Shown here: piece after piece, positions 47,959 through 48,234 of the stretch
How the letters are laid out: every line of letters starts with the position of its first letter
Position numbering within the stretch: position 1 is the first letter of the stretch
NCBI RefSeq assembly: GCF_048403405.1
Contig: NZ_CP183129.1
From: Escherichia coli
GTDB taxonomy: Bacteria; Pseudomonadota; Gammaproteobacteria; Enterobacterales; Enterobacteriaceae
Strand: one strand, 5' to 3'
DNA: 64,000 bases
The notes under the pieces: model-generated
The model's database searches: none
Told to the model about the DNA's origin: nothing
What the model saw: only the letters and a program-made list of their open reading frames with translations
Translations under genes and position numbers: made by a program

Positions 47959-48234
47959 GTGGCTTCTGTTTCTATCAGCTGTCCCTCCTGTTCAGCTACT
48001 GACGGGGTGGTGCGTAACGGCAAAAGCACCGCCGGACATCAGCGCTATCTCTGCTCTCACTGCCGTAAAACATGGCAACTGCAGTTCACTTACACCGCTT
48101 CTCAACCCGGTACGCACCAGAAAATCATTGATATGGCCATGAATGGCGTTGGATGCCGGGCAACCGCCCGCATTATGGGCGTTGGCCTCAACACGATTTT
48201 CCGCCATTTAAAAAACTCAGGCCGCAGTCGGTAA
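47959..48234 (+). CDS. insA: IS1 InsA
   Basis: 91-aa [43 protein letters not shown]. Confidence 0.9.

Follow-up and report, generated by a model that had tools for sequence, protein, structure and literature searches.

The O-antigen cluster studied here carries at its 3' end, between wzx and gnd, a complete insertion sequence of the IS1R type. We put the probability at roughly 85% that this element lies at a hybrid joint, free of a target duplication, between an O153-type and an O37-type cluster, that it is inherited together with the cluster, that its ends are occasionally used, and that its interior has been converted by other IS1 copies. The element itself is already known: it is identical to IS1R and is annotated in RefSeq. 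Moreover, IS1, its frameshift site and O-antigen clusters associated with insertion sequences are textbook material, and the discovery value here is small. What is added is the anatomy of the hybrid joint, the comparative evidence for erosion anchored at IS1 and the mosaic gene conversion. By the window, we mean the entire 64-kb stretch of DNA that was analyzed. The features around the joint are given in Table 1; elsewhere, the window consists of ordinary core chromosome, extending from yegL to the his operon with the colanic acid genes in between. As a separate observation, the RefSeq annotation of the matching record places genes for a small RelE/ParE-type toxin and an HTH antitoxin between yegH and asmA (12599..13217, - strand).

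Table 1. Features at and around the IS1 joint, and deletions found at the same locus in related genomes, in coordinates of the window.
Feature	Position	Strand	Basis or remark
wzx, O-unit flippase, 392 aa, intact	46267..47445	+	continuous ORF, Pfam Polysacc_synt
Phosphoglycerol-transferase-like gene (sulfatase family), first 145 codons only (5' fragment); cut by IRL	47468..47903	+	
Complete IS1 (IS1R type), 768 bp	47904..48671	+	ends read directly in sequence
Left terminal inverted repeat IRL, GGTGATGCTGCCAACTTACTGAT	47904..47926	+	exact match; same as IS1A-E
Promoter-like site CTGCCA-16-TATGAT, overlapping IRL	47911..47938	+	sigma-70-like match; function inferred
insA, 91 aa, GTG start; repressor and DNA-binding part of the transposase	47959..48234	+	ORF, Pfam
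InsAB' fusion, 232 aa, by -1 shift at A6C	47959..48656	+	translation
insB' frame, 167 open codons; product made only as part of the InsAB' fusion	48153..48656	+	ORF, Pfam
A6C slippery site AAAAAAC, programmed -1 ribosomal frameshift	48210..48216	+	IS1 position 307
Right terminal inverted repeat IRR, ending ...GGAGTCATTACC	48649..48671	+	same as K-12 references and R100
Remnant of the final family-2 glycosyltransferase gene of an O37-type cluster: its 3'-terminal 85 codons	48672..48928	+	KE58 identity
Intergenic stretch upstream of gnd, kept with the glycosyltransferase remnant	48929..49042	+	KE58 identity
gnd, 6-phosphogluconate dehydrogenase, right-hand neighbor	49043..50449	+	ORF, annotation
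Deletion in WWCOL-236, 27 bp	47877..47903		
Deletion in MRSN346647, 388 bp	47516..47903		
Deletion in HCP8S3_I1, 1,886 bp	46018..47903		joint at 6532/6533 of its locus (L024)

The element belongs to the IS1 family by its length, by its two reading frames with the A6C motif and by a transposase with Zn-ribbon, HTH and DDE domains. Its ends match the imperfect terminal repeats of about 23 bp found in IS1-type elements (GGTGATGCTGCCAACTTACTGAT / GGTAATGACTCCAACTTATTGAT), and the reverse complement of IRR agrees with IRL in 18 of the 23 positions. The IRL sequence occurs once in the window, where chance would predict no occurrence, and this is the only IS1 copy in the 64 kb. A weak IS1 promoter, PIS1, has been described as overlapping IRL in part (PMC12428005); the promoter-like site listed in Table 1 is the sole sigma-70-like match in 47400..49100.

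A search of plasmids found 100% matches to this element on several of them, R100 included, and string comparison then established identity to the R100 copy at 768 of 768 bases. The R100 copy is located beside catA1 at 21225-21992 of NC_002134.1, a record named "Shigella flexneri 2b plasmid R100", and transposase accession WP_095033700.1 is common to R100 and to the matching genome annotation. We also compared the window's copy base by base with the six IS1 copies of the MG1655 RefSeq record, which serve as our K-12 references. It differs by 2 nucleotides from IS1B and IS1C, by 4 from IS1D, by 7 from IS1A and IS1E, and by 75 from IS1F. Its length, ends, A6C position and ORF lengths are equal to those of IS1A-E, and none of the differences from these five copies falls within the terminal repeats or A6C. 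The two differences from IS1B and IS1C consist of one silent change and one replacement at residue 217, which is Leu in the window and Gln in IS1B/C. Relative to IS1D, only residue 193 differs at the protein level (His in the window, Tyr in IS1D), while IS1A and IS1E have Leu81 and Ser130 where the window's copy has Phe81 and Arg130. Phe81 is common to the window's InsAB', IS1B/C/D and the R100 element.

A preliminary description of this DNA had placed the A6C motif within the overlap of insA and insB, and considered both frames to be full length. Both statements are borne out, as AAAAAAC is read within the overlap (48153..48234), and the 91-aa and 167-aa frames are confirmed as ORFs. It had also proposed alignment to reference IS1 variants as a check, and named mutations in the terminal repeats or in catalytic residues as grounds for abandoning its reading. 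The comparisons above supply the alignment, with R100 IS1 as the identical copy and IS1B/C at a distance of 2 nucleotides. Because the element is base-for-base identical to R100 IS1, its ends, frameshift site and transposase are free of mutations, and the grounds named there do not apply.

The A6C motif is at IS1 position 307 in the window's copy and in all K-12 references. Its first A occupies the third position of an insA codon (TTA AAA AAC), so that a -1 slip yields the InsAB' fusion with no internal stop; the role of A6C in IS1 frameshifting has been described previously (PMC12428005). The insA product matches Pfam Zn_ribbon_InsA and HTH_Tnp_IS1 and is identical to the K-12 InsA protein of IS1B/C/D. 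InsAB' matches Zn_ribbon_InsA, HTH_Tnp_IS1 and DDE_Tnp_IS1 (PF03811, PF12759 and PF03400) at full length, with DDE_Tnp_IS1 spanning residues 102-232 over its full profile length (E 3.7e-78), and scores 243.8 bits against the NCBIfam model transpos_IS1 (NF033558), for which the cut-off is 100 bits. D109, D166 and E191, chosen by motif, are candidate acidic residues of the fusion protein. A possible stimulatory pseudoknot downstream of A6C is mentioned in the literature (PMC12428005). In the 96 nucleotides from the slippery site (48205..48300), the predicted fold is no more stable than those of shuffled sequences (z 0.0), as judged by a tool whose reach does not extend to pseudoknots, and a search of 46000..50500 against Rfam gave no match. 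Expression would proceed in the manner expected of IS1: the weak promoter in IRL would drive transcription of insA, most ribosomes would terminate to produce the InsA repressor, and a rare -1 slip on A6C would produce the InsAB' transposase, with its Zn-ribbon, HTH and DDE parts, which would act on both 23-bp ends of the element.

The unusual property of this copy is its location. A simple insertion of IS1 is expected to leave a target duplication of 8-9 bp, but the 9 bp to the left of the element (TCAATAGTA) and the 9 bp to its right (GGTTACGAG) are not duplicates. Since these 9-mers differ, the copy sits at a secondary, rearranged joint; this is no argument against its identity as IS1. The missing duplication therefore flags the joint of a rearrangement rather than a simple insertion. 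Control elements in other genomes do have such duplications: a perfect one of 9 bp (GGTTTTTTT) flanks a second IS1 in SBF22 and XH992, and one of 8 bp (GATTTTTC) flanks an IS1 upstream of the TBE6 cluster.

The two flanks have different sources. On the left, the window and TBE6 are collinear with 99.8% identity over 7.4 kb up to base 47903, where the transferase gene of TBE6 carries on. That gene is intact in TBE6, and residues 153-433 of its 460-aa product match the Pfam Sulfatase domain; the protein scores 455.9 bits against the NCBIfam model for phosphoglycerol transferase I, below its cut-off of 572. The part left in the window is the N-terminal membrane portion only, as a 146-aa ORF (47468..47908) that runs into IRL and ends at a stop codon (47906..47908) inside IS1. 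On the right, the 371 bp from 48672 onward are 100% identical to KE58 (NZ_CP141075.1), and comprise the 3' end of the gene encoding WP_222690469.1, together with the gnd spacer. In KE58, this glycosyltransferase gene encodes 262 aa and is the last of its cluster, which we call O37-type because PGAP names its wzx and wzy "O37 family". IS1 thus bridges DNA of two O-antigen clusters, O153-type on the left and O37-type on the right. In several carriers, the region from gnd to ugd further downstream is also near-identical to KE58, which fits a remnant that has stayed in its original chromosomal place beside gnd. A 30-mer representing the uninterrupted target site had no match in a set of one genome per bacterial species, and in the literature searched we found no description of this particular joint.

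Two further IS1 insertions in related genomes might recall a composite arrangement. In TBE6 (NZ_CP154401.1; L008, L014), whose locus is unusual, the upstream IS1 lies between galF and the first glycosyltransferase gene; this genome also has copies of the IS630-like element ISAeme16 at wcaM and before gnd, and its gnd is only 87% identical to that of the window. We considered and rejected a composite transposon in the window, as only one IS1 is present there and the upstream IS1 of TBE6, which has an 8-bp duplication of its own, represents a separate simple insertion. The second IS1 of SBF22 (5653..6420 in L013) and XH992 (9135..9902 in L023) is a variant with 21 mismatches that lies between gnd and ugd, at a site equivalent to about 50497..50505 of the window. 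In these two genomes, gnd is bracketed by two IS1 copies in direct orientation, in the manner of a composite transposon.

The same joint recurs widely. Among 5,426 complete E. coli genomes, the full joint is present in 76 and its IRR side in 78; the window matches E. coli isolate 68 (NZ_OX030728.1) with 100% identity. Human, dog, pig, cattle, bird and water isolates from several continents are represented among the carriers, which include SMS-3-5, and roughly 74 of the 78 have the joint unchanged. Because the same joint is present in 78 of the 5,426 genomes, it has been inherited with the cluster, of which it is, to judge from these genomes, a mostly stable part. It can serve as a stable marker of one O-antigen cluster type across these 78 complete genomes. 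One of the two genomes that have only the right-hand joint is HCP8S3_I1; the other may represent a further rearrangement. In the same set, TBE6 and TST3 are the only genomes with an intact transferase gene, and just three have the O37-type sequence to the left of the breakpoint. When 48672..53000 was compared with KE58 (L009), carriers were found in at least two gnd backgrounds: EC488, MSB1_1D and L6_E562 are near-identical to this O37 strain through gnd and ugd, and the window and SMS-3-5 diverge from it from about 49670 onward. This divergence suggests later recombination inside gnd as the cluster moved between lineages.

Three carriers have lost DNA to the left of the element (Table 1). All three deletions begin exactly at the left end of IS1 and leave the right joint unaltered. 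The largest of these, in HCP8S3_I1, takes the 3' end of a family-4 glycosyltransferase gene and the entire wzx; because wzx is lost, the O antigen of this strain is predicted to be absent. Its chromosome has IS1 at 40 or more places. The deletions would be expected as products of IS1 intramolecular transposition, and insertion of an IS1 nearby followed by recombination between the two IS1 copies would give them equally well. By either route, IS1 has been active at this locus, possibly with transposase supplied by other copies. The comparison thus points to ends that are occasionally used, with erosion of the cluster from its 3' end.

As to the origin of the joint, we propose that a foreign O153-type cluster replaced an O37-type cluster, and that IS1 supplied the right-hand crossover. 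This could have happened by homologous recombination between an IS1 in the transferase gene of the donor and an IS1 in the glycosyltransferase gene of the recipient, with the other crossover upstream near galF. The joint has afterwards been inherited and has spread with the cluster. A serious competitor, to which we give odds somewhat short of even, is an adjacent deletion by intramolecular transposition of IS1, in a chromosome where a complete O153-type cluster and a portion of the O37-type cluster were transiently present in cis. The three deletions at IRL are of exactly such a kind and lie at the same locus, and replicative intramolecular transposition is the dominant mode of IS1 (PMC12428005). 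This competitor also gains from the missing O37 intermediate: none of the three O37-type genomes among the complete genomes has an IS1 at the breakpoint. Nor does any complete genome have an O153-type cluster with IS1, a duplication and the rest of the transferase gene; that remainder occurs only in TBE6 and TST3, where it is free of IS1. However, the deletion would require an additional and unexplained step to bring the two clusters into tandem, and no tandem arrangement is present in the 5,426 genomes. We slightly favor recombination between two IS1 copies, because it would produce the structure in a single step, whereas adjacent deletion needs a tandem precursor that was not observed.

The interior of the element has a history of its own. 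At this site, IS1 occurs in six allele combinations, defined by positions 262, 298/301/304, 393/396 and 444 of the element. We compared the window with seven other carrier loci (L002, L010-L013, L019 and L023), and read the alleles as strings at IS1 positions 262, 298, 301, 304, 393 and 396. The window and EC488 have CCCTAC, FG31-1 has ACCTAC, EC42405 has CCCTCT and SBF22 has ACCTCT. SMS-3-5 and at least 55 others have AATCCT, and XH992 has AATCCT together with 444T, which is pure IS1A. Most carriers thus have an IS1A-like patch, and the window belongs to a minority of the IS1R type. Over 3 kb of the left flank, there are 0 differences among the genomes compared. A mosaic interior between identical flanks suggests that repeated gene conversion, in short tracts from other IS1 copies, has overwritten the interior of IS1 at the joint. 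IS1R-type copies are abundant on plasmids, according to our plasmid search, and are potential donors.

Whether the copy in the window can itself transpose depends on more than its frames. The IS1 of R100, to which it is identical, is the element used in classical IS1 transposition work. Chen, Hsu and Hwang are said to have reported in 1998 that His193 and Leu217 are the residues behind the differential mobility of IS1 variants. InsAB' of the window has both of these residues, reportedly those of the proficient variants. In K-12, IS1A and IS1E supply more than 99.9% of IS1 transposition, and IS1B, C and D account for less than 0.1%, even though all three keep both frames and A6C (PMC12428005). 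Intact frames and A6C are therefore insufficient for inferring competence, since IS1B/C/D retain them and yet barely move. The earlier judgment that this copy is probably transposition-competent was based on just this reasoning, which does not suffice; the judgment itself is supported in part on other grounds, namely the identity to R100, the full-length domains, and His193 and Leu217. With these, the window's IS1 is likely to be competent, and we infer that it is mobile in this host. The companion claim, that the copy is a continuing source of rearrangements, agrees with the IRL deletions of 27, 388 and 1,886 bp in relatives, and is tempered by the roughly 74 of 78 joints that are unchanged and by the possibility that other copies supplied the transposase.

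We also considered that the copy looks intact but is effectively immobile, as IS1B/C/D are, and that it persists only as a passive trace, handed down from a single old event. Deletions and other changes in relatives would then result from transposase of other IS1 copies acting in trans on its ends, or to insertion of an IS1 nearby followed by homologous recombination. The window's element is only 2 nucleotides away from IS1B/C, and shares with them Phe81; the replacement L81F has been proposed as a possible cause of the reduced activity of IS1B/C/D in K-12 (PMC12428005), where frames and A6C did not ensure mobility. Overproduced transposase mobilizes otherwise immobile IS1 copies in trans (PMC12903888), and the genome with the largest deletion is the one in which 40 or more IS1 places were counted. 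At least two genomes have no other IS1 place on the chromosome than this locus, so the element has not multiplied in them. Decay of the element is evident in at least one lineage: in MLI108K3 (L019), the IS1 of the same joint has a nonsense change, G423A, which the annotation records as an internal stop. Despite these points, we consider an immobile copy unlikely. The R100 element of classical IS1 transposition work is identical to it at every base, it has Leu217 and His193 where IS1B/C have Gln217 and IS1D has Tyr193, and the deletions start exactly at the IRL tip of this very copy. A recent, strain-specific simple insertion into a continuous gene can be dismissed, as only the intactness of the element speaks for it, against the missing target duplication, flanks that derive from different clusters and a joint found in 78 genomes from diverse hosts and countries with differing gnd alleles.

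The assignment of the left flank to a serogroup is indirect. One carrier is named CE-O153H30, which suggests that the cluster corresponds to serogroup O153; a strain of an ETEC lineage also has the cluster. No serogroup-specific NCBIfam model matches the cluster on the left flank, and the literature is divided on which sequence represents O153 and on the relation between O153 and O178 (PMC4732683). In all carriers that we inspected, the RefSeq/PGAP annotation splits wzx into a partial flippase pseudogene and a hypothetical protein, WP_223216380.1. We rejected the implied disruption of wzx by IS1 or by a frameshift, given that the gene is one continuous ORF of 392 aa, and the pseudogene call in RefSeq is probably an artefact of annotation.

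It is conceivable, though we consider it quite doubtful, that truncation of the transferase gene at the IS1 boundary created the common O153-type antigen. If this were true, the O polysaccharide of TBE6 and TST3, where the gene is intact, would bear glycerol phosphate. One IS1-mediated recombination event involving an O37-type chromosome would then account both for the move of the cluster and for the change of antigen, and the joint would record the origin of a serogroup variant.

Compared with known systems, the element itself is not distinctive. All 768 bases, the inverted repeats, the promoter, insA, A6C and InsAB' (WP_095033700.1) are equal to those of the R100 element, and only its place differs: the copy in the window occupies the 3' end of a chromosomal O-antigen cluster and is without target duplication. 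Classical deletions of the gal region end at an IS1 end and are known as IS1-promoted adjacent deletions. The deletions in the three relatives likewise start at the IRL tip and leave the other joint intact, and the duplication-free primary joint fits the same class of event. However, the classical deletions were selected in the laboratory, whereas those described here are natural variants recognized by genome comparison. Finally, in a review covering 178 serogroups, Liu et al. counted mobile elements in 23 O-antigen clusters and gene remnants in 9, and regarded these as the results of fairly recent events (PMC7685785). In comparison with the clusters of that survey, the locus in the window has both a mobile element and gene remnants, and both of its flanks can be traced to specific types, namely O153-type and O37-type.
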